This document shows, piece by piece, positions 3,631 through 62,047 of a DNA stretch of 64,000 bases (the stretch's first letter is position 1; every line of letters begins with the position of its first letter). Below the pieces are notes generated by a model. The model had not been told where the DNA came from and made no database searches. It saw only the letters and a list, made by a program, of their open reading frames with translations. Source of the stretch: Leucoraja erinacea (lineage: Eukaryota); assembly GCF_028641065.1 (NCBI RefSeq), contig NC_073387.1, positions 35,836,001-35,900,000 on the forward strand, written 5' to 3'. The translations under genes and the position numbers were made by a program.

Positions 3631-4984
3631 AAGGTAAGATGTTCAAATGTTTTACATGACTATAAAATTCCAAAGCAGCAAGGGTTCAAAGATATCTAGA
3701 TTCTGTCTGTCATTTATCCCTCAATCTTAAACAAATGGTGATTTGTCTCAATTTGATTTTAGTGAAACTAAACTGTGCAGCCATTTCCCAGCTACTGTAG
3801 ATGACTCCAATTCAACCAATTCAGTGGTTATGATTTACATTTAAATGTCATTAGGAAAGTACTGTGTTAAAATAGGCTGTTTAACCAGTTATCAGAAATG
3901 TGTTCAAGCACATTCTACACAATGATCGGTCAATAAGAGTTTATCATGAATTGCTCAGCAAACTTCAGCATTGCATCAGTAGACTCAGCCACTAAGATCT
4001 AAGAAGTCACTAGTGAGGTTGAAAAATATAATTATTGCAGTGGCATGTTCTTTTGCTTTGGGTTTAAGAAAATGAGGTAGAAATTAATCCTTGTTGAGCT
4101 TGTGAAAAAAAGGTTTGTTTGTTACACAATAAAATGAGATCGGTTTGAGAAATTAACCTAATACCAGATTGAAGAAACTTTCAGAAGAATCTGTTGGCCA
4201 TCGAGAACAGATTTCTCCAGCATTAGTGAATGCTGAAATGCCAGTTTTTCATTCCAGCTATGAAAATGGATAATTGCAGAGTCCAGTAACATTAGGGTTC
4301 TGCAGAAGCTTGGAGTTCTACAACAAAAGGTAAGCTGTTTTTTTTTTTTAATTAAAAGTTTTTAAAAATGGTGCTGTGCATAGTACTCCCCCAATTTAAC
4401 AGGATTCCCTGCTGCACCTGTTTTCCAGGACTTAACGTCAGATGTTTGCCAGTGAGACAAAGTCATTGATAATAATCTAATAGTCAAACAAACAGTTCAA
4501 TAATACTGTGAACCAGTAATTATGCTGATAGTACCTCCAGGTGATACCAATGCAAGTCATGGCCTTGGACCTTCCAGTTTGGACCTGCTTTGCAGTGCCA
4601 TGCTGTCTTTGCACCCAACATAAGGAATAAATTGGTTGCATAGTGTTTGGTGGTTCTGTTGCCCAGGTCCAGAAAACCCAGGTGTGAATCTGACCTATTC
4701 ACTACAAATTGGTCCTAGTGTAGACATGGGCCAGGAGAATCTGGAGGAGTTGGCCAACAAATGAGAGAGAATTGCCAACAGGGAAATAAGTGAGGGAACG
4801 GGACCTATGGATTGTTTCATTGTGAGCCAGCATAGATTTGAATGGTCAAATGGCTTCTTCCCATGACATATGATATATACCTCATTAATCAATAAGTATT
4901 GCAAAAAAAAGATCATTTATTAGCTTATTGATTTTTTTTTTAATTGCTCACGTTGTCATTTCATGGAAATCATAACATTATTGA

Positions 4985-5480
4985 AAGACAGCTCAAAAAC
5001 AGGTCATTCAGGACCACCTACCTTAAGCCAACTATGACTCCCTCCTACACTAATCCCATCTGCCTGCATTAGGTGTCTGCTCTACACTCCTCTACACACA
5101 TCCTAAAATGCCTTATAAACATTGTAGTTGTATCTGCCTTCATCATCTTCACTGACAACTCCTACCATATATTGAAGATAGATGCAAAAAGCTGGAGTAA
5201 CTCAGCGGGACAGGCAGCATCTCTGGAGAGATTTCCCCTGCCATATATTCATCACCTTCTGTGTAATATCATACCCCTTTCAATTTCTCACCTCTCACCT
5301 TAGACCTGTCCCTTTAGTTCCAGACTATCGAACCTATTTATTCACAATATAATTTTACAAACCTCTATAAGATCACACTACAGCCTTCCAAGTCCTAGTG
5401 AGCATAAACACAGCCTACCCAATATCTCTTTCAAACTGCAGCCCTCCAATGCCAGCATCAACCTTGTCCTGCTTGCAACT
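4985..5480 (-). mobile_element. Old CR1 3' fragment with a small PLE-derived insert (about 5175-5230)
   Basis: Similar to the other CR1 3' ends here. Embedded gctggagtaactcagcgggacaggcagcatctctggag motif. Confidence 0.55.
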
Positions 5481-7010
5481 ACATGTCGCTACAGACAGGT
5501 GCCATCTTAGGCCTTGGGCTCTTGGTGGAATCATTCGCAATTAATACGAACAAGGTAATAAGATTTTGTACAGTAAAATTTCCAATTAGAAGCAAAATAA
5601 AAATGCAGTCGTACATTAAAAAAATATAATTTCTAGGCATAAATATAAAATGGTGGAAACATGAAATTAAGATAGAAAAAGCTGACTGCATTTAACAGGC
5701 CATGTTACGTCTGTGGGGAAAGAGTTTCATGTTTCAGGTCAAGGCCACTTCATCAAAACTGAAAAAGTGAGATAAGGTTATTTGTCACTGCCTGTTTCCT
5801 TGTCCTTTCATTTGCTTTCAACATGGATGGGGATACATTATCTTAATTTCATTAGTCATAACCAGATGATACTTTATCTTTCCTTTTGGTAGTTTTTAAT
5901 GCCCAGAATGTTAGTTCACATTTTTCAAATCACATTAAATGGCTCTAAGTTTTAGGAAATGTTACTCATTGATAATTTACGCTAATCATTATGAATATGT
6001 AAAAGAATTTCAGTTAATATTTTCCAGTTAACATCAAATGCCAATTTGATAAAAAATTATCACACCTGACTCCCTTGACCCTTGAACTAATCTAAATTTC
6101 AACATGTCAAAAGCAGACCACTCTGCAAATCTAAATTGGTAGAACACTGATAATTTTCATATCTGCTGGGGAAACCAGAAGAAGAGGCAGCACACACATC
6201 CAATTGCACTGGCCAGCGCCGAAAATCATTTGCATGCAGTGTTTGGGATTTAGGTTTACCAAAGAAGTATCAACAATTTATATGAGGTATACAGTTTGAT
6301 TCTGGACTTAATCCCCTTAAGTCTGATTATAGGAGTGTCTGGGGCACATTAGTTAGATTTTAGTAGAATCTGTGATTAAGATTCAGGTCATGGGATGTAA
6401 AGCATTTTATGTGTTCAAATAAATATTGAGGCTAATAAATGGAGGGACAAGGGACATTTTTGTATCCAGTGCCAGTTTAAATCTCAATTGGCTTCACATC
6501 TCCAGGAGAGAGCATAATTGTAGAGCGATGAATTGGACAATTTCAATTCAACTAGGAACGATTTTGAATAAATGTAGACTGCTCAAATAACCCAGAGGTA
6601 TGCCCCTGAGCTGGCTAAAAGATGTAAATTAGAATGATCCCAGAAAAGTTACCCTGGTCAGTAGTATGTAAACACGCCCATTGCAATTTGCCACATTTCC
6701 ATCAAAGTGACCTGTTAGGCAACATCTCATTGTGCCTTAAAAAAAAACACATTGTATGAAGGATAAGTACACTATATTTTAGCATCATTCCATTGTCCAA
6801 GCTAGATACAGATATAAAAATGATTGTTAACTAAAACTAAAGTTTTCTTTATATATTTTTGTCAATGACTTTTTCAGTTTTTTTGCTACACTCAAACATC
6901 ACCTCACCACAATAAAATCACAGCACAAGAAAAGGGAAAACGTGAGAAGTAAATTTTAATATGATGGTAAGTGTTTTTAAGGATAATGAACCAGAAATTT
7001 TATTCCTTCA

Positions 7011-7918
7011 TCACATATTGGCCATGTACTGCTTCTCCGCAAATGTAACTATCTCCACTGGTCTGGTGCTAATTCTGGCACTACTAGTGGAAGGATGGGC
7101 TGTGTATATATCTTCTGCAGAAAGGCAAAGATCCCTAAGAATTGGAACTTCAAAGCCACTAACTCCTGAATATGGATTACTTTCCATCTCGGAATATGAA
7201 AAGTTAGTTTCTGCAATGAACTGACTGGAGCAGTAAGCTTGTTCCAAAACCTCCTCAGTTACAAGGCTAACCATGGAACTAATATCCTCACTAATTCCAC
7301 CTAAGCTTTTTTGCAATGCTGTGTGCATGTCTTGCAGATTTGTATTGATCTGCTTCAGGCCACTATGGATAGTATTCCATATATTGGCCATGTCCACCTG
7401 AAGTGCTTTTTGGATCTCTGCAAGCCCAATCTTTAGGGCACTCAAATGGTCTGTCATTCCAGCCTGCAAAACATTATGCAGTTCTGCAAGAATGGTTGCA
7501 TGCATGTCCGTTGCACCAGACTGGTTTGTAGCTTGCAGCTTTGCCACATTAAATGGTTCAGCTCCATGCATATCAGTGAAATTCGCATGCATGTGGGCTT
7601 CGAGATCAGCCACGGCAGCTTGTAGGTCCCCACTGATTGCATTCTTAGCCTCTTGTAGCCCCAAGAACAGAGCCTGAATATTCAGATCAAGCAGATCCTG
7701 TGGCATTACAACTTGCATCTGGTGACACCTACGTAGCCTTGCAGATGGTCTGGATACTGTCTCCTCCACCAACTGTGCCACAACTGCCTGTTCTGAGGTG
7801 GCCAGTTGCATTGAACGCTCCTGCAGCACAGGGGACCGTGATGACTCTTGAACTCCTCTGGTAGTTATCTTCATGCTTGATCTAGCTGGCTTCTCCAGCA
7901 CTAATCGGACTGGCACAT
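7011..7918 (-). CDS. Putative TRIM exon 8 (terminal coding exon, about 301 aa): low-complexity linker, 11-residue amphipathic repeat region, C-terminal tail
   Basis: Part of the 309-codon stop-free ORF 7011-7940 in non-repeat DNA. Strong acceptor TTGTCTCTTCCCACCTCCACAG|AT (phase 1) matches the end phase of exon 9677-9738. TGA at 7013-7011. Minus-strand AATAAA just downstream (about 7003-6998). Confidence 0.6.
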
Positions 7919-8164
7919 CTGTGGAGGTGGGAAGAGACAACCATGAAGTTATACCCTTTGATGAGCTCTGGATTTAGCAGTTGCTTCAATCTAGAGAATA
8001 GAATTAATCAAATTGCATTTGGTGTGATGATGATAAAACTATCGATGGCAACAGTAGGCACGGTTCAACGTGTTCAAGTTGAAGGGATGACATGCAAATC
8101 ATAACAGATCACTGCAACAATCTGTTCCACCCATTGTACTCCCAGGGTAACTTTCAGGGCCCAT

Positions 8165-9676: not shown

Positions 9677-9738
9677 CTTTGCAAAACAGAGATGTATACT
9701 GTGTTCTTCTGACCTCTCCAGTGGTACCTGTGGGTTTC
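9677..9738 (-). CDS. TRIM exon 7 (62 nt, phase 2 to 1; KPTGTTGEVRRTQYTSLFCK)
   Basis: T-rich acceptor ttttatttttaaattattatag and donor AAG|GTATTT. It bridges exon 6 (ends phase 2) to the phase-1 acceptor at 7918. All three frames are open, so the frame is inferred from the neighbours. Confidence 0.6.
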
Positions 9739-12600: not shown

Positions 12601-12616
12601 TTGAACTATTACTCAC

Positions 12617-12695
12617 ATGGAGTCTGGCAAATTATCCTCCTCGTTTTCATCTTCCAATGGAACTCTTTCTTCCGATACTTCATCATTTGAATGAA
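12617..12695 (-). CDS. TRIM exon 6 (79 nt, phase 1 to 2; acidic linker VHSNDEVSEERVPLEDENEEDNLPDSM)
   Basis: ttttttacaaacatttag acceptor and GTGAGT donor. Open in the phase required by exon 5. Confidence 0.7.
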
Positions 12696-13152
12696 CTAAA
12701 TGTTTGTAAAAAATTCATTTACAGAACAAGGTTACCAATTTATACTATGTGTTCTTATAGATTTGAGGATTAATTTAATTTATGGTAATAAATCCCGAAG
12801 AAATAAAATCATTTAAATAACCATATCAGATGAGACATGCGTGTAGCCTTTATAGAATATTGATTTATTTCATGTGTTATACGATATCTAAGAAAAAACA
12901 ACACTAATGCTTTCTGCTTATTGTTATCAATTCCTGAACCAGTCACTGATTGTACCTCAGGTCCGGCTTCTCAATTATAGCTATTACATTAATAGACTTT
13001 GTACTGAAATTCCAACTAGCTATTACATTTTTGCACTGTAATAACCACATACATTATTAAGTTGATTACATTTTTGTTTACCATACAATCCATTACACTC
13101 TTTATGTTTTCTGCTCTTTTCATAAAGCAGACTAACGATACTTAGAGAGGGG

Positions 13153-14239: not shown

Positions 14240-16410
14240 TCATATGGTGGAGAAATGGAGCAGGGGGACACACTATCAGAATCATTTGGTGAACATGAGA
14301 GAGGAGCTGGCCAAGGTCGACAGGAAAAGGATCCTAGCAGGAATGTTGGTGGAACAGCAATGGCAAGAATTTCTGGGCATAATCTAGAAGATGCAGGATC
14401 ATTTCATTCCAACGAAGAAGAAAGACTTTAAGGTAAGTGAGAGGCAACTGTGGCTGACAAGGGAAGTTAGGGATGGAATAAAACTAAAAGAAAAGGTGTA
14501 TAACATAGCAAAGAGTAGCGGGAAGCCAGAGGATTGGAAAACGTTTCAAAGGACAACAGACGGTAACAAAAAGGGCAATACGGGGTGAAAAGATGAAGTA
14601 CGAAGGGAAGCTGGCCAAGAATATAAAGAATGAGAGTAAAAGCTTCTTTAGGTATGTTAAGAGAAAAAGATTAGTAAAGACAAAGTGGGTCTCATGAAGG
14701 CAGAAACAGGTGAAATTATTATGGGGAAAAAGGAAATGACAGATGAGTTGAACTGGTACTTTGGTTCTGTCTTCACCAAGGAAGACACAATCTCCCAGAT
14801 GTACTAGAGGAGAGTGGATCTAGGGAGACAGAGGAACTGAAAGAAATTTGCATTAGGCGAGAAATTGTGTAGACTGATGGGACTGAAGGCTGATAAATCC
14901 CCAGGGCCTGATGGTCCGCTTCGCAGGGTACTCAAGGAGGTGGCTAGAAATTGTGGATGGATTGGTGATCATTTTCCAATGTTTTATAGATTCAGGATCA
15001 GTTCCTGTGGATTGGAGGGTAGCTAATGTAATCCCACTTTTCAAGAAAGGAGCGGGAGAGAAAATGGGGAATTATAGACCAGTTAACGTGACATTGGTGG
15101 TGGGGAAGATGCTGCAGTCAATTATTAAAGAAGTAATAACGGCGCATTTGGATAGCAATAAAAGGGTTCGTCCAAGTCAGCATGGATATATGAAGAAAAA
15201 ATCCTGCTTGACTAAACTTCTGGAATTTTTTGAGGATATGACAAATAAAATGGATGACGGAGAGCCAGCGGAAGTAGTGTATACGGACTTTCGAAAAACC
15301 TTTGATAAGATCGCACACAGGAGATCAGTGGGTAAAATTAGAGCACATGGTATTGGAGGGTAGGGTATTGACATGGATAGAGAATTGGTTGGCAGACAGA
15401 AAACAAAGATTAGGAATAAATGGGTCCCTGTCAGAATGGCAGGTCGTGGTGAGCGGAGTGCCGCAAGGCTTGGTGCTGAGGCAGCAACTATTTACAATAT
15501 ATATTAATGATTTAGATGATGGGACTAAAAGTAACACTAGCAAATTTGCAATGACACAAAACTGGGTGGCAGTGTGAACTGTGACGAGGATGCTCGGAGT
15601 TTGCAGGTTGACTTGGACACGTTGAGTGTGTGGGCAGATGCATGGCAGATGCAATATAATGTAGATATATGCGAGGTTATCCACTTTGGTGGCAAGAACA
15701 ACGAGGCAGATTATTATCTCAATGGTGTCAGATTAGGAAAAAGGGAAGTGCAACGACACCTGGGTGTCCTTGTACACCAGTCACTGAAAGTAAACATGCA
15801 GGTACAGGAGCCAGTGAAGAAAGCTGGCCTTCATAACGATAGAATTTTAGTATAGGAGTAAAGAGGTCCTTCTGCAGTTGTACATGGCCCTGGTGAGACC
15901 ACATCTGGAGTATTGTGTGTGGTTTTGGTCTCCTAATTTGAGGAAGGACATTCTTGCTATTGAGGCAGTAGGTTCATGAGGTTAATCCCCGGGATGGCAT
16001 GACTATCATATGAGGAAAGATGGGAAAGACTGGGCTTGTATTCACTGGAATTTAGGATGAGAGGTTATCTTATAGAAACGTATAAAATTATAAAAAGGAC
16101 TAGACAATGTAATGCAGGAAAAATGTTCCCAATGTGGAGTCCAGAACCAGGGGCCACAGTCTAAGAATAAAGGGGAGGTCATTTCAAACTGAGATGAGAA
16201 AAAACATTTTCACCCAGAGTTGTGAATTTGTGGAATTCTCTGCTACAGTAGGCAGTAGAGGCCAATTCACTGGATTAATTTAAAAGAGTTAGATAGAGAT
16301 CTAGGGGCTAGCGGAATCAAGGGGTATGGGTAAAAGCCAGGCGCGGGTTACTGATAGTGGATGATCAGCCAATTGGCCTCCTCCTGCACCTATTCTCTAT
16401 GTTTCTATGT
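14240..16410 (+). mobile_element. CR1 LINE (HER1-like), 5' truncated, RT region with frameshifts
   Basis: ORF fragments DWRVANVIPLFKKG, NYRPV, SQHG.MKKKSCLT.LLEFFE, SGVPQG, FTIYINDLDD. Ends in a (tttctatg)n tail. Confidence 0.92.
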
Positions 16411-18461: not shown

Positions 18462-18598
18462 CAGGGTGATCAAAAATTAGTGTGTTTAACATCTCAAAAA
18501 TCCGTTTAGTTTCTTGTTTAATGGTCGATATTGTAGACTCATCAAGCTTCTTCCAGGAAACCCTGAGTGTTTCTACTTCAGTATTGTTGTTGGAAATC
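18462..18598 (-). CDS. TRIM exon 5 (137 nt, phase 2 to 1; ISNNNTEVETLRVSWKKLDESTISTIKQETKRIFEMLNTLIFDHP)
   Basis: actatttcag acceptor and CTG|GTACGT donor. Open in the phase set by the 23-nt exon. Position fits the TRIM L2 linker exon. Confidence 0.8.
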
Positions 18599-18975: not shown

Positions 18976-19996
18976 TCACACGACCTGTTAGATAAATTTC
19001 AAATATATTGTCCTTTTGTGGAAACTTCTTATAAAGGTTTTTTTTTCCTATATGTTCACATAGTCCTCTGATTAATGTAGATCAATGTTGAAATGATGCA
19101 TTGCACCATCTATACATAAATATTATGGGAAATCTTGCCTGTTGTTCCTTCCCATGTCTTTCCTCACACAAAAAGAGCATAGGAATGGTGAAATAACCTA
19201 CAAATACAAAGACGATAGAAAATTTAAAAAAATCTCTTTTGATGTAAAAAAAAGACATAAAGTGCGAAAGTATGTTAAAAAAAAGACATTGTGTGAAAGT
19301 AACCCAGCACTCGGGCAGCATGTCTGGAGAACATGGATAGTGGGGTCTTGCCCCATCTCTCTTCCAGCTTCCTCCAACCCACCATAATCAGTCTGAAGAA
19401 TGGTCCTGACCCGAAACATCACATACCCATGTGCTCCAGTGGTGTTGCCCGACCCGTTGAGTTACTCCAGCACTTTGTATCTTTTATTTGTAAACCAGCA
19501 TCTGCAGTCCTTTGATGCAATTATTTAAACCTATTAAGACGTTCAGTATTTTCATACAATGATAAATTCAGGTTCAAATCGGACTTTCCAGATACCTATT
19601 ATGGATATTCTATTGAACTTTTATGCTTTGCATCCTTTCTTGCCTTAAAAAAAATCAAATATGAAGTCAAAATTGTACAGATAGTTTTATATTGTGTCAT
19701 TGTTGTAATAGTTCAGGACTTGAAATTAGCGGTTGCCCGGGTGCCAATGGTAATCTACAGTCCTGCCGGGCAACCTAAAAGCCATGCCATTTTGCCCGGC
19801 TTGGAAAGCACCCGGGACACCTATCATTTAATTCTGAGTGGGCCCCCTATCTATCTCTCTCTCTCTGTCACTCTCGGTCTCCGCCCGCCATCCGTGTCCG
19901 GCTCTCCGGTCTCTGTTCGGCTCTCAGTTCTCTGCTCGGCTTTCGACTCTCGGCTCTCTGGTCTCGGGTCTCCGCTCGGCATGGCACGCCGCCTTA

Positions 19997-20190
19997 CACA
20001 TGCGCACTGTCACGGCCTGCACATCCTCCCCCTGCACATGCGCACTGTCACGGCCTGCACATCCTCCCCCTGCACATGCGCACTGTCACGGCCTGCACAT
20101 CCTCCCCCTTCACATGTGCACAACCACGGCCAGCACAATCATCGGCTGTGGTTGTGCGCATGTGCCACCCTGCACATGTGCACTGCCATG
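19997..20190. repeat. Tandem repeat, about 38-bp unit acatgcgcactgtcacggcctgcacatcctccccctgc, 3 copies plus degenerate ones
   Basis: Read directly from the sequence. Confidence 0.9.
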
Positions 20191-21117
20191 GCAACTGGTT
20201 GGCGTTGGCCACTTTCTCCCTCCCTTTGCATTGTGGGAGGTCTGGCCGCCATTGCTGTCCTCACTGCGACGCTGAAAACCAACGCAGAATCACTCGCTGG
20301 AGCTGGAGTAACTCCCTGGAGTAACTCTTGCTTCTTGGTTTCCTGGCCCTCCAAAAATATTCCAAATGGAATTGAAACTAATGGACCCACCACCACCAAA
20401 CTCCAAACTCTGAAAAATAACAGCCTATTGCATTTTATCTGTTTATTTAATGTGTATATATATATATTGTCTATGGTATATAGACACACTGAACTTTTAT
20501 CTCCTGTTCTGTATTATGTTTACATATTTTGCTGTGCTGCAGCAAGCAAGAATTTCATTGTCCTATCTGGGCCACATGACAATAAAACTCTCTTGACTCT
20601 TGACTTGAACTTAAGCAAAAAAGGGTTTGTGGGAAAAAACAGCCACCTTAAATTTAGTTGCATCTGGTTGGGTGCCTATGGTAGGGTGAAGACTATTCCA
20701 TGCTTTAATTGTGCAGGGGGATCTCCATGCAGCAGCCAGCATCTCTGGATGGAAGAAATTGGGTGACGTTTCGGGTAGAGACCCTTCTTTAGATTTCCTC
20801 TGGTTTTAATGTTTTTAGTTTAATTTAAAGATACACCATGGAAACAGGCCCTTCGGCCCACCGAGTCCATGCCGACCACTGACCACCCATACACTAGTTC
20901 TATCCCACACATTAGCGACGCAAGTTAAGAGTCAAGAGTGTGTTATTCTCTCACGTCCCAATTTGAACAATGAAATCCTTATTTACAGCAGCACAACAGA
21001 ATATGTAAACATAGTACTCTGTAAACAATGTTATAAACGAGAAAACAAATCTCCATACAGACAGCTCCCATATTCAGGATCAATTCCGGGTCTCTGGCAA
21101 TTTTAGGCCGCAACTTT

Positions 21118-22056
21118 ATGGCCAGCGAAATACGAGGTGCAGTTCCTCCAATTTGCGGTGGGCCTCACTCTGGCCATGGAGGAGGCCCAGGACAGAAAGG
21201 TTGGATTCAGAATGGAGGGGGAGTTGAAGTGCTGAGCCACCAGGAGATCAGGTTGGTTATTGCACACCGAGTTGGGCAGCTGTTGGGCGAAGCGATCGCC
21301 AAGCCTCCGATTGGTCTCACCGATGTAGGGCAGCTGACGCCTAGAGCAGCGGATGCAATAGATGAGGTTGGAGGAGGTGCAGGTGAATCTCTGCCGCACC
21401 TGGAAATACTGCTTGGGTCCTTCAATGGAGTCAAGGGGGGAGGTAAAGCAACAAGTGTAGCATTTCCTGCAGTTGCAAGGGAAAGTGCCAGGAGAGGGGG
21501 TGGTTTGGGTTGGAAGGGACGAATTGACCAGGGAGTTATGGAGGAAGCGGTCTCTGCAGAAAGCCGACAGGGGTGGAGATGGGAAGATGTGGCCAATGGC
21601 GGGATCCCGTTGGTAGACAAAGCTGGAGAAAATCAGCGGGTGAGGCAGCATCTATGGAGCGAAGGAATAGGCGACGTTTCGGGTTGAGACCCTTCTTCAG
21701 ACTGATGTCGGGAGGGGTGGGGGGCAGGAAAAAGAAAGGAAGAGGCGGAGACAGTAGGCTGTGGGAGAGCTGGGAATGGGAGGGGAAGGAGGGAGAAAGC
21801 AAGGACTACCTGAAATTGGAGAAGCCAATGTTCATACTGCTGGGGTGTAAACTACCCAAGCAAAATATGAGGTGCTATTCCTCCAATTTGCGGTGGGCCT
21901 CACTCTGGCCATGGAGGAGGTCTAGGACAGAAAGGTCGGATTCGGAATGGGAGGGGGAGTTGAAGTGCTGAGCCACCGGGAGATCAGGTAGGTTATTGCG
22001 AACTGAGTGGAGGTGTTGTGCGAAGCGATCGCCAAGCCCGCACTTGATCTCACCGA
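21118..22056 (-). mobile_element. Two Penelope 3' segments in partial tandem (GIY-YIG region plus pseudo-LTR)
   Basis: ORF 21103-21651 contains NLIYCIRCSR..LPYIGET.RRLGDRF (GIY-YIG). A second copy of the same C-terminus lies at 21820-22056. Confidence 0.9.
21669..21705 (-). ncRNA. Minimal type I hammerhead ribozyme-like motif in PLE pseudo-LTR
   Basis: Minus strand tcagt-CTGAAGA-a-gggt(ctca)accc-GAAA-CG-TC-gcct. Confidence 0.6.
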
Positions 22057-22905: not shown

Positions 22906-22970
22906 TCATTGTTCTACCGAACAGGCTAGGTTAAAATTCATCTTTTTGTTTGTGTTGTGCAAATTCCTAC

Positions 22971-22993
22971 CTTTCATAAGTAGACTTGAAATC
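22971..22993 (-). CDS. TRIM exon 4 (23 nt, phase 0 to 2; DFKSTYER)
   Basis: gtttatttattttccag acceptor and AAG|GTAGGA donor. A 23-nt micro-exon is characteristic of vertebrate TRIM genes. Confidence 0.88.
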
Positions 22994-23887: not shown

Positions 23888-24121
23888 CTTAATAAAGAAC
23901 AGCGGGTCTTTCTGATTTTTCAGGTCTTGGACTTCCTGAATAAGATGAGTAATAACTTCTCTTTTAATTTCTAATTCTTGGATCTTCTTCAAGACTTTTG
24001 AAAGGTTTATGTTTTTCTCTGTTATAACTGTGTCCAAGATTTGCTTTTCTTGCTTGGTTAATAGCATTCTAATTTCTTGAAACAAGTCTGAAATTTGTTT
24101 CCTCAAAATAGCACTGTCTTT
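23888..24121 (-). CDS. TRIM exon 3 (234 nt, coiled coil; KDSAILRKQISDLFQEIR...QKDPLFFIK)
   Basis: T-rich acceptor ending ttttacag, donor AAG|GTAAAA. Heptad-rich helix. A 231/234-nt size is typical of TRIM coiled-coil exons. Confidence 0.92.
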
Positions 24122-27904: not shown

Positions 27905-28566
27905 AGTGAATACCTTTAAAGATTCAATGAGAGAAAACCTTAACTTGTTAAATTTTAAGGAATCCAACCTCAATTTGTGTAATACATCTTCATTGCTTAA
28001 CATTTGGAGACTCGTATCATCTGTAATTATTCAAGCCTTATATATCTTTACAAATCTGCAGTGCCCAATAGTGATCACAATGCTATAGTTGTGTTCTAAC
28101 TCAAGCTTTGTATAGCTTTGTATCACTAAAACCATAACTTCTAGTACCTTCTAGTACCTTATATTCTCACCCTTGAGACAAAAAAATATAATTTCCATTT
28201 ACCATTACCATATACCATTTCGCTCAACACTGGCTCTCTGTCCACCAAGCCCCGCTGGAATTTCCGGTAGCTAATCATTTTAACCCCCTTTCAATTCTCA
28301 TAATGACCTTTCGGTGCATGGACTCCTCCATTGCCAAAGTGAGGCCACGTGCAAACTGGAAGACCAACACCTCATACCATCGCTGCCCCTCCTATCGTTT
28401 TCCTGCACCTTCCCCACCCCCAGCACCTTCCATCATATCTCACTACCCCAGTCATCCTTCTCCTTTCCCCTTCTTTGTGAGCTCCCACCTGCATTTTGCG
28501 TCTATCTTCGGTTTAAACTAGCATCTGCAGTTCCTTCCTACACATTCAGAAACAATGATTTCCTTC

Positions 28567-29776
28567 CTACCACTAACTTCCATCCGGCACTCAAATACAC
28601 CTGGACCATTATCGACACTTCCCTACCATTCCTTGACCTCACTATCTCCATTGCAGGTGATAGACTTCTAACCGACATACACTATAAACCCACTGACTCC
28701 CATGGCTATCTGGACTACACTTCTTCCCACCCTGCTTCCTGTAAGGACTCCATCCCCTACTCCCAATTCCTCCGTCTACGCCGCATCTGCTCCACGGATG
28801 AGGCGTTCCACACCAGGACATCTGAAATGTCCTCACTATTCAGGGAACGGGGGTTCCCCTCCTCCACCATAAATGAGGCTCGCACCAGGGTCTCCTCCAT
28901 ACCCCGCAACACTGCTCTCTCTCCCCATCCCCGCACTCGCAACAAGGGCCGAGTCCCCCTAGTCCTCACCTTTCACCCCACCAGCCATCACATACAAAAA
29001 GTAATCCTCCGTCAGTTTCGCCACCTCCAACGTGACCCCACTACTCGCCACATCTTCCCATCTCCCCCCATATCTGCCTTCCGCAAAGACCGCTCCCTCC
29101 ATAACTCCCTTGTCAATTCTTCCCTTCCCTCTCGGTCCACCCCCTCCCCGGGCACTTTCCCTTGCAACCGCAAGAGATGCAACACTTGTCCCTTTACCTC
29201 CCCCCTCGACTCCGTTCAAGGACCCAAGCAATCGTTCCAGGTGCGACAGAGGTTTACCTGCATCTCTTCCAACCTCATCTATTGCGTCCGCTGCTCTAGA
29301 TGTCAGCAGATCTATATCGGTGAGACCAAGCGGAGGTTGGGCGATCGTTTCGCCGAACACCTCCGCTCGGTCCGCAATAACCAAGCTGACCTCCCGGTGG
29401 CTCAGCACTTCAACTCCCCCTCCCACTCCGCCTCCGACCTCTCTGTCCTGGGTCTCCTCCATGGCCACAGCGAGCAGCACCGGAAATTGGAGGAACAGCA
29501 CCTCATATTCCGTTTGGGGAGTCTGCACCCCGGGGGCATGAACATCGAATTCTCCCAATTTTGTTAGTCCTTGCTGTCCCCTCCCCTTCCTCAGCCCCCC
29601 TGCTGTCTCCTCCCATCCCCCAGCCTTCCGGCTACTCCTCCTTTTCCCTTTCTTGTCCCCACCCACCCCCGCCCCCGATCAGTCTGAAGAAGGGTTTCGG
29701 CCCGAAACGTTGCCTATTTCCTTCGCTCCATAGATGCTGCTGCACCCGCTGAGTTTCTCCAGCTTTTTTGTGTAAC
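28567..29776 (+). mobile_element. Young 5'-truncated Penelope-like element: RT C-terminus, linker, GIY-YIG endonuclease (open to stop at 29567) and pseudo-LTR; 14-bp TSD
   Basis: LPFLDLTI, YKPTDSHGYLDYTSSHP, C.R.RCNTC zinc linker and NLIYCVRC...YIGETKRRLGDRFAEHLRS. TSD CAATGATTTCCTTC at 28553-28566 and 29777-29790. Confidence 0.95.
29680..29714 (+). ncRNA. Minimal type I hammerhead ribozyme-like motif
   Basis: cagt-CTGAAGA-a-gggt(ttcg)gccc-GAAA-CG-TT-gcc. Confidence 0.6.
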
Positions 29777-32283: not shown

Positions 32284-32379
32284 CTTTAAGTTCACTTCAG
32301 TTCCTTGCAATTCTTTTGTAGCTTCCTCTAAGGTTAGTCTGCAGCTCTGCAGATTCTCCAGTTTCTCGGAAAGGCTGGC
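32284..32379 (-). CDS. TRIM exon 2 (96 nt, coiled-coil start; ASLSEKLENLQSCRLTLEEATKELQGTEVNLK)
   Basis: cttttaacag acceptor and AAG|GTAAAT donor. A 96-nt phase 0-0 exon is characteristic of TRIM genes. Confidence 0.92.
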
Positions 32380-32510: not shown

Positions 32511-33083
32511 CTTTGTCTCATTGTGTATGTCTTTTAAAATGCGTATGTCATGGTTCTTATGTGGTCCAGCAACATAGCATGTCACACAGATACAGGAATG
32601 GTCATCTAAGCAGTAATATTCAATTAGTTTCTCATGATCAGAACATTTTCTGTCTTCCAGTGAACTTGCAGGCTCAATCAGTAGGTGGTTTTTCTGAGCA
32701 GCTTTCTCAGAGTGCTTCCTCAAGTGATGTTCACATAAAGAGGCTTCACAGTTCATACATGTCTTCACTGCAGGGAGAGGACTATCCAAACAGAAATCAC
32801 AGAAGATTTTAGGTGGTTCTTCGTTCATCTGGGTGGCTTCAAAACGTTCTATTATGTTACTTAGTTTCAAATTTTTGTGTAGTATAGGTTTCTGAGCATA
32901 CTCTGCACGACACTCTGGGCAGGAATACCCTGGCCCAGTATCTTTTTTGTCCCAGTTCTTTTCAATACAACTACGACAGAAGTTGTGCCCACAGGACAGT
33001 GAAACTGGTTCGGTGTATATATTCCAGCAAATTGAACAATTTAATTCTTCTTTTAAATTACCAACAGCTGAAGTAGAAGCCAT
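32511..33083 (-). CDS. TRIM first coding exon: RING finger, B-box1, B-box2 (TRIM16/TRIM25/finTRIM-like architecture; putative E3 ubiquitin ligase)
   Basis: EELNCSIC...LSCGHNFCRSCI...CPECR (C3HC4), CDFC...CMNCEASLCEHHL..H...H, CSDH...YC...CVTC....H..H. Donor AAG|GTGAGA at 32510. Alternative ATG at 33089. A possible acceptor at 33112-33114 implies an upstream non-coding exon. Confidence 0.97.
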
Positions 33084-33471
33084 TTTCATTTCTCCAAAGT
33101 AAGTCAAGCAGCTGTAACAGATTTGCGAAATGGTTAATTAACGGAAAGAGCACATGATAATGGTATAATTAATGTTGATTTACAACCTCAAAGCTTTGCA
33201 AAATTACTTCACATACAATATGAAGTGCAGTCATTGTTGCAATTCAAGAACATACTCTGAATGCTGGTCCCAGAGTGGATCTGTGATCATTCAGTAGAGT
33301 TACTCCACTCTTTTACACCTCTACACCAACAACAGCTCTTTATCCTGTATCTGTACACTGTGGGCGGTTTGATTGTAATCTTGCACCGATTTTCCACTGT
33401 CAGGATAGCATACAACAAAGAGCTTTTAACTGTACCTCGGGTACAGGTAACAATAAACTAAACTAAACTAA

Positions 33472-34180
33472 TGGGCCTGTCCCACTTAGGCGATTTTTCA
33501 GCGGACTGCCGGCGACTGTCAAGTTGCCGGTAGTCGCCTGAAAAACCAGAAACTGGAANNNNNNNNNNNNNNNNNNNNNNNNNNNNNNNNNNNNNNNNNN
33601 NNNNNNNNNNNNNNNNNNNNNNNNNNNNNNNNNNNNNNNNNNNNNNNNNNNNNNNNNNNNNNNNNNNNNNNNNNNNNNNNNNNNNNNNNNNNNNNNNNNN
33701 NNNNNNNNNNNNNNNNNNNNNNNNCATGTGAATTTTTTAGACAGCGCTCCCTCGCTTGCACCGTCTAAAAAATTCACACGGTGCAAGCCAAGGTGATACA
33801 GACACACACAGCGATGAACAGGAAATTTGGCGCTGTAAAAAGACGTCTAAAGCACAGTGTACAGTAAGTCCTTTAAAAGAGATAGGGGGAGAAGGGGGGA
33901 GAAGGAGTGGTGACAACACCAGAGATACACGGCAGTGAAGCTCGGCTGACATTTAACATTACCGGTCGGTTATCCTTGGTTCTGAAAACTACTGCTTACC
34001 TTTTTTCCCCCCAGTGAGCCAATGAAATTCACCCGCTACATCCTACGAGAACCTCCGAGAACCTTCGACCTCCTGGCAACCCATTAGGACCTCCTTCCGA
34101 CCCACCTACGGTTCGGGAATTCTCGCTACTCTCCATGGCGGCTTCATTCTAGTCGCCGCTAATTTTTCAACATGTTGGAA
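33472..34180. mobile_element. Harbinger-type MITE sequence spanning the assembly gap, right end missing
   Basis: TAA|TGGGCCTGTCCCACTTAGG start, matching 56763. Sequence after the gap has related motifs (gacctcc, aatttttcaacatgttg). Confidence 0.6.
33559..33724. other. Assembly gap (166 N)
   Basis: Run of N. Confidence 1.
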
Positions 34181-34370
34181 TGTGGTCCGATGAAGGTAAC
34201 GCCCCTTCCGGGGGGGGGGGGGGGGGGGCAGCACTATAAAAGCCCGGATGCCTGGACGTGAGTGGAAGATCGCGAGGGAGAGTCCACAACTGTGATTCTA
34301 CGCTGTGAATCAACTGAACTGTGAATCTGCAATAAATGATTTGTTAGCCTTTAATGAAAATGTAATTACA

Positions 34371-34688
34371 GGTTTGGCCTGCCTTGTGCTTGAAACAGCA
34401 ATGGAAATGGAAATGAAATGAAAATGCAATGAGCTGTTTGGCCTGCCCTGTGCTTGAAACTGCAATGGAAATGAAATGAAAATGCAATGAGCTGTTTGGC
34501 CTGCCCTGTGCTTGAAAGTGCAATGGAAATGGTAATGGAAATGAAATGAAATGAAATGAGTTGTTTGGCCTGCCCTGTGCTTGAACTTGACATGGAAATG
34601 GAAATGGAAAGTAAATGAGTTGTTTGGCCTGCCCTGTGCTTGAAATTGCAATGGAAATGAAATGAAATGTGTTGTTTGGCCTGCCTGA
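34371..34688. repeat. Tandem array of about 55-70-bp units: tgtttggcctgccctgtgcttgaaa plus variable (GAAAT/GGAAAT)n
   Basis: Five complete units plus a partial sixth, read directly. Confidence 0.9.
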
Positions 34689-34829
34689 AACCACCAATTT
34701 CAGCCCACAAGGCCCCTAATAGCCAAGAAACCAGTCCCTTTTACCCAAAATGCCTGTATTAGCTCAGGAGGAGCATTTGGGCCCAAAAGGCCCGTGCCAG
34801 GCCAGGAAAAGTCTAGAGAAAGTGCTTTC

Positions 34830-44685: not shown

Positions 44686-45631
44686 CCCATTGAGATAATA
44701 ATCTGCCCCCTTGTTTTTGCTGCTAAAGTGGATAACCTCACATTGATCTATATTATACTGCATCTGCCACACATCTGCCCACTCACACAACTTGTCTAGG
44801 TCACCCTGCAACCTCCTAACATCCTCTTCACATTTCACACTGCCACCCAGCTTTGTATCATCCGCAAACTTGCTAGTGTTGCTCCTAATTCCCTCTTACA
44901 AATCATTAATATATATGGTATACAGTTGCGGCCCCAAAACCGAGCCTTGCGGCACTCCACTCGCCCCTGCCTGCCATTCTGAAAAAGACCCATTCTCTCC
45001 TACTCCCTACTCCCAATACCATGTGCACTAATTTTCGTCACCAGTCTCCCGTGCAGGACCATATCAAAGGCTTTCTGAATGTCTTGATACACTACATCCA
45101 CTGGCTCCCCTTCATCCATTTTACTTGTCACATCCTCAAAAAATTCCAGAAGATTAGTCAAGCATGATTTTCCTTTCATAAATCCATGCTGACTTGGACT
45201 AATCCTTTTACTGCTATCCAAATGCCCCATTATTACCTCTTTAATAATTGACTCCAGCATCTTTCCCACCACTGAAGTCAGGCTAACTGGTCTGTAATTC
45301 CCCGTTTTCTCTCTCGCTCCTTTCTTGAAAAGTGGGATAACATTAGCTATCCTCCAATCCGCAGGAACTGATCCTGAATCCATTGGAAAATGCTCACCAA
45401 TGCGTCCACTATTTCTAGTGTCACCTCCCTGAGGACCCTGGGATGCAGACCATCAGGCCCAGGGGATTTATTATCCTTCAGTCCCATTAGCCTACCCAAT
45501 ACTATTTCTCGCCTAATGAAAATTTATTTCAGTTCCTCTAGCCCCTTAGATTCTCTGTCCTCCAGTACTTCTGGGAGATTATTTGTGTCTTCCTTAGTGA
45601 AGACAGATCTGGAGTACCTGTTCAACTCTAT

Positions 45632-50540: not shown

Positions 50541-51569
50541 CCTTTGTAATCCCAATAAATCTGAAAGCCTATGTGGATAATAAAAGGATTTAGATTCCAG
50601 GCATATACATTTTGAGTGTAGATTTTTAAGGGATGATTAATCTTTGCGGAAGGTTATCACCAATTCAATTTGTTATTGACATTAAGATCCACTGATGGCA
50701 AAGAATAGTGGATGCTCTGAACTGCATTTGACCTAGATTATTTAGGAATTTGGCATAAGCATTGCTCCCACAGAAAAATATCAGCATTTCTCTGTCACAA
50801 TAACATTTTATTCTGATGTTATGTAACTGAAAACACATAAGTAATGCACAGTAAGAACATTAGAAATGAGATAACTCACCGAATTTGTGTTAAATATTAC
50901 GAGACAGTGTGTCATTGATTCTCATAATCGGTAGCAATGAACGAGACCTAAGTGACCTACAAACTATTTAATTGTATCATAATATGATACTTATGATGTC
51001 ATAAGATCAAATGATAGTTATTGCACAAGCTTGTGCAAAATTAAATCACATTGGGTTTACTGTGGTAACCTTGCAGGAGAATAGCTATTCACTAAATAAC
51101 TTCAAATTTAAATGTCCTCTTTAAAAATAGTGACCCTTGCAGTAGCTTTATGTAGATCTCCCCTCAGCCAATCAAGTTCTGCCTTGTGAACAAGTGGACA
51201 TTATGAGGTCACACACTATTAGAAGCCGTGTAATGACATCACTATTTAGCTGTGTCACATTGTGACAACATGAATAACCAACAATTCACACATCCTTCCA
51301 AATATCTAGGTACTTTCTATGCTATTCTGACAATCCCTCTCATATCTGCACTGTTTCCTTTTCCAAAAAGATAAAGAAAAGATCACCCCCCCCCCAACCC
51401 TCTTTCCCCGCAGTTAACAAAATCGCAGAAAACACTGCGGATATTAACAGTTGTACCTTACTTAGAACCACATTTTCTCAGCAGTAAGGAATAGAAAGAA
51501 TAGCCAACCTTGACAAAGCTATAAGAATGACAGTGAATGCTTCTCAAGTAACTGTTAAACCATTTAACC

Positions 51570-52523
51570 TGGTGCTCAGAAAACAATCTGGCTCTGAACA
51601 CCAGGAAAACAAAAGAGCTCATTGTCGACTTCAGGAGGTACAGCACCGACTTAGTCCCCCTACATATCAACGGCGAGTGTGTGGAGAGGGTCAACACCTT
51701 CCGGTTTCTCGGCGTCCTTATCTCTGCTGATATCTCCTGGACAGACAACACGACAGCGGTCATCAAGAAGGCTCAGCAGCGGCTGCACTTCCTGAGGGTT
51801 CTCAGGAAGCACAACCTGGACTCTAACCTGCTGCTGACCTTCTACCGCTCGTCCATCGAGAGCCTGCTGACATACTGCATTACAGCATGGTACGGCAGCT
51901 GCACCATGGCAGACAGGGAGAGGCTTCAGAGGGTAACTAGGACAGCACAGAAGATCATTGGTTGCCCTCTCCCCTCCCTGATGGATATTTACACCTCCCG
52001 CTGCCTTAGCAGGGCAAAGAATATCATCAAGGACAGCTCCCATCCTGCGTTTGGACTGTTCGACCTGCTGCCCTCTGGAAGGTGCTATAGGTGCATCAAA
52101 TCTAGGACAAATAGACTCAGGAATAGTTGTTTTCCGAAAGTCATAACTACTCTTAATTCACACATGCACTGACTTCACAGCCCAACACCCGGGCTTCCAT
52201 CTATTCTATCCACGTACTGATATTTGGAACTGTAATGTGTATTGTAACTGTAATTTTTAATATTTTTTAAAAACATTTTTAATATTTAATATAATCTTTA
52301 AACATCTGCCTAAGAATACTACCTATTCATCCTTCACCATTTTGCCTTTCTAGATATGTATATAGCGCCGCAGAATTGTGCACCTATCCCCCCCCCTTTT
52401 GTTTTGTTTTCTGTTTCTTGTTTTTTGTACTAAATTATATGTATGCACTGAGTACGAGCAGCTTTTAATCTCATTGTACATGTATAGTGACAATAAATGG
52501 CATATCTATATCTATATCTATCT
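51570..52523 (+). mobile_element. Rex1/Babar-type LINE, 5' truncated, open C-terminal frame (RT C-terminus plus DUF1891-like region)
   Basis: WCSENNLALNTRKTKELIVDFRR...FRFLGV.IS..SW..NT..VIKKAQQRLHFLRVLRK...SIESLLTYCITAWYG; 3' aataaatggc(atatct)n tail. Confidence 0.9.
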
Positions 52524-58890: not shown

Positions 58891-61449
58891 AGTCTCGCTG
58901 GAGGGTTCAGGCATACCCTCCACAGTGCCTAGGCACTGCCCATCGCTTCCTCCTTAGTGTGGTTAGCTTTGGGGTGACCAGTGGCTGGGCTGGTCATGAA
59001 GAGGGGTCATTGGCTGAACAACATCGGGAGTATGCTTGAGGTACAGGATCAGGAAGAGCTGCTGGGTGTGGCCGCTATGTGGCTCCACCACTAGCGAGAT
59101 GGCTTTTCAGTCTCAACTGATGGCCAGCTTACTACCTGTCTTTTCCAAAAAACCTCTCCAAGACAGGTAGCCATGAGGCGTTGGTTTTATCACGCCTCCC
59201 CTAAATTGCATTTACTCAAAGTGCCCGCCATTATTGGGGGATACATTGAGCAGCGCATTTTACCTAAATATTTAAAAAACGCATTTGATACCCTGACGTC
59301 GGCTATCATGTCCACCTGCTCATTCCAGAAGGGCAGGGTAGTATGGCAAAACACCTGACCCTACTGTTCAACGGTATACCCCATAACTTCTCAAGTGAAG
59401 TCACAGACCTGCCCTCAATCTATGAAATGAACAGGACTATGAGAACGCCGACCTCACAAGCACAGATCCTGCTACCTGGCACTTACCAAACCAGTCCTAA
59501 AAAATTGAATGAAGTGTTCAAACTATTCGGCTCAAGAGGGCAGAGTCTGGAATGAGCACCACACTAAACCAGACAGCAGTACCTATACGCGTCCACCAGG
59601 TGCGTCTACCTCATGGTACTGGTGAAAGCTCGGGGCCTGCATGCCAAACCCGTAGCATTTTAGGCCACGGCCCAGAGCAGGCCCCAGGAAAATGCGCCAC
59701 CCCCCCCCAACAAACATCGTCCCTACAAGAACAAGGAACCAGAAACCGAAGAAAACAACAATGAAGACAGATAAGTATGGTTCCTACCATCACATAAAGG
59801 TGAAGGGTTGTACTAACAAGGGGTGGGTGAATCACGCCTGGTTAGGAAGCTATCACTCTTGGTAGTTATATACCAAAAAATAAATACAAGGGGAATAGAA
59901 TTAATATCTTGCCACCAATTCAGCAAGCACCCCAAGGGGTCTACCCTCCCACGATGGTGAATGTCGCACCATCATTGATAAACCATTTGAGTATTTCACC
60001 AGGTATACCCATTTATGGGATTTGTAACTTCTACCATGGATCCAAGGATACTTTATGGTAGACATCGACCTTGAAGATGCATACTATTCAGTACCTTCTC
60101 ATATAAGTTTCGGTTATACAGCAATTACCTGGATGGAGTAACCATGATGAGGTTGCGGCATTTAAGTCAAAGCTATCCAGAATCAACCAGCCCTGACACT
60201 TAAGAAACATTCCGTCATGGCATGTTTATATATTAACGACAGACTATCCTTGGATACAGCTTTAGCTGCATTAGCTACTAACTTATTTAGTGGGCACTGC
60301 CATATATCCAGATATTTACGTTGACCATCCACAACATTGTCTATCTGGTATTCATTAAGACTATCAGTTATGGTACATTAACCACCAATCAACTACGTGG
60401 CAAAGTAATTGGGATAATAGCAGCATTACCAGCTACTGAACATTGTACCTTTCCTATGAGCTGAGATACTAGTGTTCAAAACTATCTCCATACCTGTAAT
60501 ATGTGGGCAAATGAATTAATCTGGAGTGTTATCATGGAATTTATCAGCAGGAAGGATTATGGTTGTACACTTCGACCTGTTTTGAGTAACATCTTATGTG
60601 TCCTGATGTGTTACTGAGCTTGTAAAACTTAATGCCAATGTGAATTGACTTAAACGTGTTATATATTAACTTACTTAATTCTAGTGAAGCATTTGCTCAG
60701 TAATCGACCAAATTTGCAGGTTCATTTATAAGTTAACAACATCACAGTGGTGGCATATACCAAACCACTTGGGCGGGGAACATCGATATTAGGTGACAAT
60801 TTATTAACAATTGGAAACCATATGTCATCAAACATGTTTGACCATCAGTAACTCACCTATCAGGTGAGCTAAATACTGTAAACATACATTTAAACCAAAA
60901 ATATTTGCTGAAATTACTAAGCAATATGGACACCAGATATCGATTCCTTATATCCAATTAAATCACCACGTACTAACTCACGTCACATGAAACCAATCTC
61001 AAGGCAGCGGCAATGGAGACATTCCCGCGTATTGAGGGGTGGGGGGAACCTAATCTCTATGTTTTCCTTTCCTTCTACCTCTTCAATAGGTACTACGGTT
61101 TCATCAGTCGGGTACTATGCAAATTACAGTGGACCAAGTCCACAGGCATGGTTCCCAGTGATCCTCGACATGGTCATTAAAAGAATTGCAGAATTGGGTA
61201 GACCGCTGCTAGGCTTGGATCAGCAGCACTATCAACCTGATGACAGCATTCCGTCGCATATCCTAGGGAACATACCTGAGGAACATCAAGAAATGGGACA
61301 CTGTTTTCCAAAACAGGAATTACACATTGAACTACAACAAAAAACTGTACTGGAGCTCCTGGCAGGTCTTCACCACAATGAAGGAAATGTTCTGTCAGCC
61401 TACTCAACTTGGGTACCGCTCACTGGTGATCAGATACAGGAGAGGTATA

Positions 61450-62047
61450 TCAATCCATTCCCCAGAAATAGGTACACCCAAATTGGGATGTCAGTGAAAT
61501 CCTGACATACCTTAGGGGATGATCACCAGCCAGGTCACTCACCCTGGAACAGCCTACCCTGAAGATGGACATGCTGGTGGCCTTACCTCAACACAAAGAG
61601 CCAGTTCTCCCATCTACTGCGATTGGACAACATGGTTATAACACCAGATAGTGTCACATTCCCATTCAAGGGTTGGCCAAACAGAACAGACCAGGAACAT
61701 CAGGTCTAGTCATGAAATTCCGGGCATACCCACCTGAACCACGTTTTATGTGTCATGACCCACTTAGAGATCTACATCGACACAATAAGGAATACCGAGG
61801 GAGAGGAAAAAGCCTTATGGGTCAGCCAAAGGAAACCTCGGTTGGGTGACGAGCTAAACTATCTCTAGTGGCTCAAGCAGGTACTGGGAGTTGCTGGAGT
61901 AAATACTAACGTGTATAAAATCTTATTCCACCAGGACAGCTTCCACGTCAGTAACTAAGAGGATGGTCGAGCCTATGGACCACATCCTGGCGACTGCAGG
62001 GTGGTCTAGGGAGTATACGTTCCAAACTTTTATAACAAACCACTGAC
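61450..62047 (+). pseudogene. Frameshifted DIRS tyrosine recombinase
   Basis: Across frames: LRLDNMVIT...AKQNRPG...FRAYPPEPR..CVMTHLEIYID...WLKQVLGVAGVNTNVYK.YSTRTASTS...HILATAGWSREYTFQTFYNKP. The catalytic HxxR reads YSTR. Confidence 0.85.

Follow-up and report, generated by a model that had tools for sequence, protein, structure and literature searches.

What does a run of 11-residue amphipathic repeats do at the end of a vertebrate TRIM gene: does it join protein chains to one another, or does it lie on lipid? The question is raised by a 64,000-nucleotide stretch of the little skate (Leucoraja erinacea) genome, referred to here as the window. In an earlier note on its sequence, these repeats had been parsed from a putative TRIM C-terminal exon, and targeting of the ligase to membranes or lipid droplets, a second oligomerization rod, and pH or metal sensitivity through histidines had been suggested as functions.

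The host is a SPRY-less TRIM gene

The window is vertebrate DNA, and its chief gene is a TRIM gene on the minus strand, modeled in little skate as LOC129701679. An exact-match walk accounts for every residue of the RefSeq isoform X1 (XP_055498998; 705 aa) with eight exons between 33089 and 7014. Isoform X2 (XP_055499000; 549 aa) shares these exons and adds one at 2249 to 2325. In this last exon the acidic tail of X2 begins, with 23 Asp/Glu among 84 residues; the final 58 residues of X2 had no match within the window. Coding exon 1 (32511 to 33089) encodes the RING and B-box region (aa 1 to 193), and exons 2 (32284 to 32379; aa 194 to 225) and 3 (23888 to 24121; aa 226 to 303) encode the coiled coil. 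These are followed by exons 4 (22970 to 22993; aa 304 to 311), 5 (18463 to 18597; aa 312 to 356), 6 (12616 to 12696; aa 357 to 383), and 7 (9678 to 9737; aa 384 to 403).

Pfam finds the N-terminal RING above its cut-off (zf-C3HC4_4; E 3e-10) and a B-box (zf-B_box; E 4e-9); an ANCHR-like B-box and TRIM_CC, the latter in exon 3, match weakly, below cut-off. The nearest solved relative is TRIM25 (E 4.4e-36 across aa 12 to 343). The host resembles TRIM25 and other RBCC ligases in its RING, B-boxes, and coiled coil but differs from the TRIM25 class in its C-terminus, which is either the acidic tail or the hendecad module described below; no Pfam PRY/SPRY family matches X1 or X2. The RBCC part (33089 to 22970) is identical between skate and catsharks at 295 to 296 of 303 residues, which is very high for a TRIM. 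Database names for this protein disagree (TRIM8-like, TRIM25-like, and MID2), and a 166-N assembly gap (33559 to 33724) lies directly upstream of the first coding exon.

Elsewhere in the window, a long open reading frame at 28284 to 29567 (plus strand), with a weak GIY-YIG match (E 0.003) and partial copies nearby and at 21103 to 21651 (minus strand), presumably resembles the end of a Penelope-type retroelement. Fragments that by eye look like LINE reverse transcriptases, of the CR1 type and others, lie at 14887 to 15855 (plus), 45000 to 45452 (minus), and 51552 to 52172 (minus), and a tandem repeat with a unit of ∼50 to 60 bases (34310 to 34740) gives repetitive open reading frames in three frames. 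Two plus-strand open reading frames, at 60921 to 61505 (194 aa) and 19516 to 20766 (416 aa), have no Pfam match; the second, in which a short tandem repeat lies, may be noncoding.

The repeat is reached by reading through an internal splice donor

Exon 8 begins after an acceptor AG at 7920-7919. Its 5′ part (7733 to 7918, minus strand) is common to X1 and X2 and is predicted to be mostly disordered. It ends at an internal GT donor (7731-7732; C|GTAGGT) that, in the gene models, is spliced in X2 and read through in X1. The X1 read-through passes a stretch ahead of the repeat as first parsed (7626 to 7730), then the hendecad module (7251 to 7625), which comprises 10 11-mers, an 8-mer (7493 to 7470), and a 7-mer (7337 to 7317) and is predicted to form a long helix, and finally the poorly conserved X1 tail (7011 to 7250), with its TGA stop at 7013-7011. 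A stop-to-stop open reading frame (7011 to 7973, minus strand) contains the repeat peptide. Just past the X1 stop, within the X2 intron, stands AATAAA (6999 to 7004), a candidate poly(A) signal; farther into this intron is a very high-copy repeat (4937 to 5470), to which most of the aligned reads and contigs belong. The assignment of the repeat to a TRIM gene therefore stands, but calling its exon the TRIM C-terminal exon needs qualifying, since it is an X1-specific read-through and other isoforms are acidic-tailed.

Translation of the read-through is read here from database gene models and from conservation. RefSeq models carry X1 in three species, and among 18 TRIM proteins examined, the module is found in three: skate X1 and the X1 of two catsharks. 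In bamboo shark and in an older catshark annotation, the module was called as a predicted gene of its own. Zebra shark X2 (P0019) meets a stop five residues past the donor, and a RING-less Mobula model (P0034) continues into a short, different peptide; lineage-specific loss is a possible explanation of these differences, and the fusion with the module may be dispensable in some lineages. In an RNA run of a related organism (∼6% sampled), depth was zero over the module and likewise over bins with two other TRIM exons. Three contig sets continue through the intron and look genomic.

Skate-catshark identity follows the parts of the protein. The common part of exon 8 is identical at 51 of 62 residues (skate versus catshark), the first read-through residues (aa 466 to 501) at 34 of 36 (skate versus catsharks), the repeat at 77 of 125, and the X1 tail at 32 of 79 (both skate versus catshark); the read-through frame is open and retains 62 to 94% identity from skate to catsharks. 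All of these identities are inflated because chondrichthyan proteins evolve slowly, as described, along with a skate/shark split at 306 Ma (95% CI, 252 to 387), in PMC3692497. The gradient argues for an X1 product that is translated and under selection.

An old repeat with a period of 11/3

The proposed parse (11, 11, 11, 11, 8, 11, 11, 11, 11, 7, 11) is letter-exact at 7625 to 7284, and the same register extends beyond it, by two 11-mers upstream (7691 to 7626) and one downstream (7283 to 7251). Spectral power at 3.667 residues, the period expected of 11-mers, was reached by none of 2,000 shuffles on each of three scales, and in a 114-residue stretch the Fourier peak within the 3.3-to-4.0 band fell at 3.68 to 3.69 on all three; over all periods, the highest Kyte-Doolittle peak was at 2.24, near the 11/5 harmonic. 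There is no heptad signal, since 550, 1,249, and 152 of 2,000 shuffles on the three scales reached the power at 3.5. BLOSUM autocorrelation was high at lag 11 (z 5.4), lag 22 (z 4.9), and lag 33 (z 3.7). As had been noticed by eye, hydrophobic residues fall at positions 1, 5, and 8: large ones occupy these positions in 8, 9, and 9 of the 10 skate units and any other position in at most 3 of 10.

At the DNA level, the lag-11 signal comes from the first and second codon positions (z 2.9 and 6.3) and is missing from the third (z −2.3), and Tandem Repeats Finder reports no array at the repeat. These results point to an old protein-level repeat and rule out a recent tandem repeat of DNA. The window holds no second copy of the module. 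Derivation from the gene's own coiled coil was rejected because tblastn gave only E 0.33 to 0.86, hhalign aligned only the shared part of the exon, and the 3.667 period is absent from that coiled coil (308 to 787 of 2,000 shuffles); the module does not align to it. A viral or phage origin was likewise rejected, since searches of viral contigs, metagenome contigs, phages, and NCBIfam found nothing related. A fold search returned no BFVD or PDB match at E ≤0.001, and weak matches to tail-protein PHROGs in two of seven members are taken as pattern matches.

Two smaller features of the repeat fared less well. DMH does recur three times in skate but reads DVH, DMQ, or QMH in catsharks and so is not conserved. 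Histidine makes up 8 of 125 residues in skate versus 4 to 5 in three shark orthologues; two histidines are invariant across all seven aligned sequences but flank the core. Because the histidine excess is specific to skate, the idea of pH or metal sensitivity finds little support.

A homologous module in an unrelated membrane protein

A phmmer search of 1.84 billion representative sequences returned eight matches, all elasmobranch by name. Four are not TRIM proteins: they represent one uncharacterized protein in whale shark, a sawshark, Mustelus, and the ray Narcine (XP_078062088.1, XP_069775744.1, and XP_048472589.1 are examples; phmmer E 2e-17 to 4e-11). This protein, here termed Ig-5TM, opens with a signal peptide and an Ig domain, continues with about five hydrophobic helices and a Ser/Thr-rich linker, and ends in the module and a basic tail with 11 to 17 Lys/Arg among its last 40 residues. 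By hydropathy there are five hydrophobic helices in P0032 and four in P0028 and P0031; all three have a conserved Cys-bearing loop ahead of the last helix. We take the layout to resemble that of CD47; searches of Pfam and of solved structures gave no CD47 match for this protein, and its structure model is poor (pLDDT 38). One Narcine isoform lacks the module. The earlier placement of the module in a TRIM gene, with an 11/3 period and a predicted helix, holds, but a copy in an unrelated membrane-protein gene had been missed.

The Ig-5TM module is a run of eight clean, uninterrupted hendecads, whereas its TRIM counterpart is longer by 8 residues; a single 7-mer sits at an equivalent place in both. 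In the four Ig-5TM homologues the period peaks at 3.64 to 3.67 (0 of 1,000 shuffles), likewise with no signal at 3.5. Because a common pattern is enough to make periodic sequences align, we permuted the order of the eight matched units (40,320 permutations, 12 pairs): the true order was equaled by just 1 to 12 of the 40,320 permutations in 12 of 12 pairs, at an identity of 32 to 39 of 88 residues in matched units. The unit order and the shared place of the 7-mer make the homology real, and we conclude that the TRIM and Ig-5TM modules are homologous.

Both genes are present in sharks and batoids, and the sharing of the module therefore probably predates the split between them. The common part of exon 8 (7918 to 7733) aligns weakly with the Ig-5TM stretch that precedes the module, at a borderline level (0 to 304 of 1,000 shuffles over eight pairs), so the captured piece may have been the whole of exon 8. 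Homology between the tails of the two genes is unsupported (13 to 731 of 1,000 shuffles).

A predicted hendecad coiled coil

Lettering the 11 positions a to k, a choice of this analysis that depends on where the register starts, places large hydrophobic residues at a, e, and h in 80, 90, and 88% of 40 TRIM units and in 90, 100, and 80% of 40 Ig-5TM units. At d, glycine is found in 16 of the 40 TRIM units and 25 of the 40 Ig-5TM units (41 of 80 overall). Over these 80 units from two genes, Asp/Glu is frequent at g, and Lys/Arg does not exceed 10% at any position. Plotted on a 3-11 wheel, the hydrophobic positions are confined to a, e, and h and make a stripe ∼66° wide. All eight sequences are acidic, with net charges from −7 to −15 and 4 to 8 Lys/Arg in 117 to 125 residues; the skate module has a net charge of −9 and 5 Lys/Arg in 125. 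The skate helix is broken near 7559 to 7470 by a Pro and the 8-residue unit. The AlphaFold2 monomer model, built from an alignment of seven sequences (pTM 0.29; mean pLDDT 57), places an unbroken 106-residue helix (model residues 137 to 242) after a shorter one, with pLDDT 75 to 92 over most of the helix block.

These properties are those of a hendecad coiled coil: a period of 11/3 rather than 7/2, three core positions accompanied by a small residue, and a long, predicted helix. PMC9858780 describes a steric clash in hendecad cores that is eased when core residues are small or the oligomer is of higher order; it gives the hydrophobic positions as a, d, and h, whereas in our lettering the module has them at a/e/h and often Gly at d. 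Scy and FilP and the hendecad segment in the middle of TRIM coiled coils share with the module an 11/3 period with small residues beside the core (PMC9858780; PMC10643145). The module differs from these known hendecad coiled coils in that no sequence relation to them was found and its small residue is mostly Gly, not Ala.

We consider it reasonably likely, judging from the residue pattern, that the repeat forms, over ∼145 residues, a hendecad (11/3) coiled-coil module that serves X1 as a second oligomerization rod. The pattern fits the rod proposed in the earlier note, and it is the pattern that suggests self-association. The module would form a long helix whose a/e/h stripe is buried against other copies; the bundle would be nearly straight, and Gly at d would permit close packing. 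TRIM dimers are antiparallel, and their RINGs are activated when assembly brings them together (PMC10643145); since activation follows assembly, a second rod could cluster and activate X1. Each X1 dimer would gain a second self-association site, by which dimers could be joined into larger assemblies and their RING domains brought together, and splice choice would decide whether the ligase clusters (X1) or carries the acidic tail instead (X2). A homotrimer prediction for residues 70 to 245 in three copies, run with no alignment and no controls, scored 0.22 against a mark of 0.32.

Other readings of the repeat

The main competitor is a helix of the perilipin or apolipoprotein kind, unfolded in solution, that folds on droplets or membranes and takes X1 there. 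The module resembles perilipin, apolipoprotein, and synuclein helices in 11-mer period, amphipathicity, and length, and a periodicity of 3.67 is what marks their 3-11 helices according to PMC6164224 and PMC5889406. Pfam Apolipoprotein matches four of seven aligned members, with a best E of 0.0048, but at 13 to 16 bits versus a cut-off of 90; no perilipin or synuclein family matches up to E 1, and nothing matches among solved structures. That a membrane protein bears the homologous module is also in favor of a lipid helix. The chemistry is less so. Lipid-binding 3-11 helices such as Plin4 have a basic polar face and a net charge that is near zero or positive, whereas the module is strongly acidic and poor in Lys/Arg, with a narrow aliphatic stripe and at most one Pro. 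Plin4 repeats, with a net charge of +1, were lost from droplets when reversed to −1, against −7 to −15 here; extra hydrophobicity rescued a charge-reversed Plin4 helix, and the aliphatic residues of the module are larger. A HeliQuest-style score peaked at 0.88, with 0 of 108 windows above 1.34 and 6 above 0.68. With aliphatic residues at a/e/h only, Gly at d, acidic character, and few Lys/Arg, the module is closer in its chemistry to a hendecad coiled coil than to the lipid helices of perilipins or synucleins. Membrane or lipid-droplet targeting, as proposed earlier, is thus the less favored function, and we regard it as unlikely.

A more skeptical account treats the read-through as captured DNA, annotated as an isoform and yielding little or no functional protein. 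In its favor, the module is intronic in most isoforms and confined to so few of the TRIM proteins examined, zebra shark X2 stops just past the donor, and two annotations call a separate gene. It is at odds with the open frame, whose 62 to 94% identity falls off along the protein's own parts, with periodicity kept at non-silent codon positions only, and with the AATAAA directly past the stop; we judge it very improbable. The likeness between the two genes has also prompted a bolder thought, that the module is a pairing code by which TRIM X1 would dock, through a mixed coiled coil, on the Ig-5TM copy and recruit the ligase. Unit-for-unit homology with the 7-mer in the same place, the presence of both genes in sharks and batoids, and module-less isoforms in both are in its favor, as is a layout of signal peptide, Ig, and five helices from which a cytosolic location of the Ig-5TM module would follow (a low-confidence model). 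Yet the 8 extra TRIM residues break register with the first half of the Ig-5TM copy, identity in matched units is low, and common ancestry alone explains the likeness, which leaves such docking rather improbable.

The widest version of this thought, improbable to a similar degree, is an elasmobranch-specific mobile module, perhaps transposon-derived, that was recruited twice before the shark/batoid split, once for a TRIM tail brought in by splicing and once for the cytoplasmic tail of Ig-5TM, to give a like-with-like TRIM/Ig-5TM pairing code with splicing in both genes as its on/off switch. Death domains, which pair like with like, offer a parallel. The Ser/Thr-rich, low-complexity linker and basic tail may resemble the C-termini of Harbinger Myb/SANT-like proteins. 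No such protein was among the matches of the phmmer search or of a profile search of proteins of 125 to 529 aa, and the part of PMC9392472 that was accessible gives no account of those C-termini. The preferred reading remains a coiled-coil rod specific to X1.

Relation to known families and significance

The module reaches the cut-off of no family in Pfam, NCBIfam, or PHROG, and no solved structure matches it by sequence or fold. Baculo_PEP_C (PF04513) gives weak matches in seven of seven members (best E 1.2e-5; 13 to 21 bits versus a cut-off of 38), read here as a common helical repeat pattern and not homology. The profile search of 125- to 529-aa proteins found nothing new. An index of longer proteins matched 0 of 1,428 candidates; longer relatives exist and went undetected, so this index misses relatives. 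In a literature search confined largely to the main text of open-access articles, we found no published description of the module. Ig-5TM carries a homologous module but in a membrane protein with a Ser/Thr-rich linker and basic tail. We conclude that the module is real, conserved, and lineage-restricted, that it belongs to a known kind of protein, and that it is apparently undescribed.

The targets and activation of TRIM proteins come from what follows the coiled coil, and this one, SPRY-less, alternates two tails. The occurrence of the module in two unrelated genes amounts to domain shuffling on a small scale, restricted to sharks and rays within the reach of our searches. As a regular, natural hendecad helix from a vertebrate, it also offers a direct test bed for the sequence rules by which coiled coils and 3-11 lipid helices are told apart.
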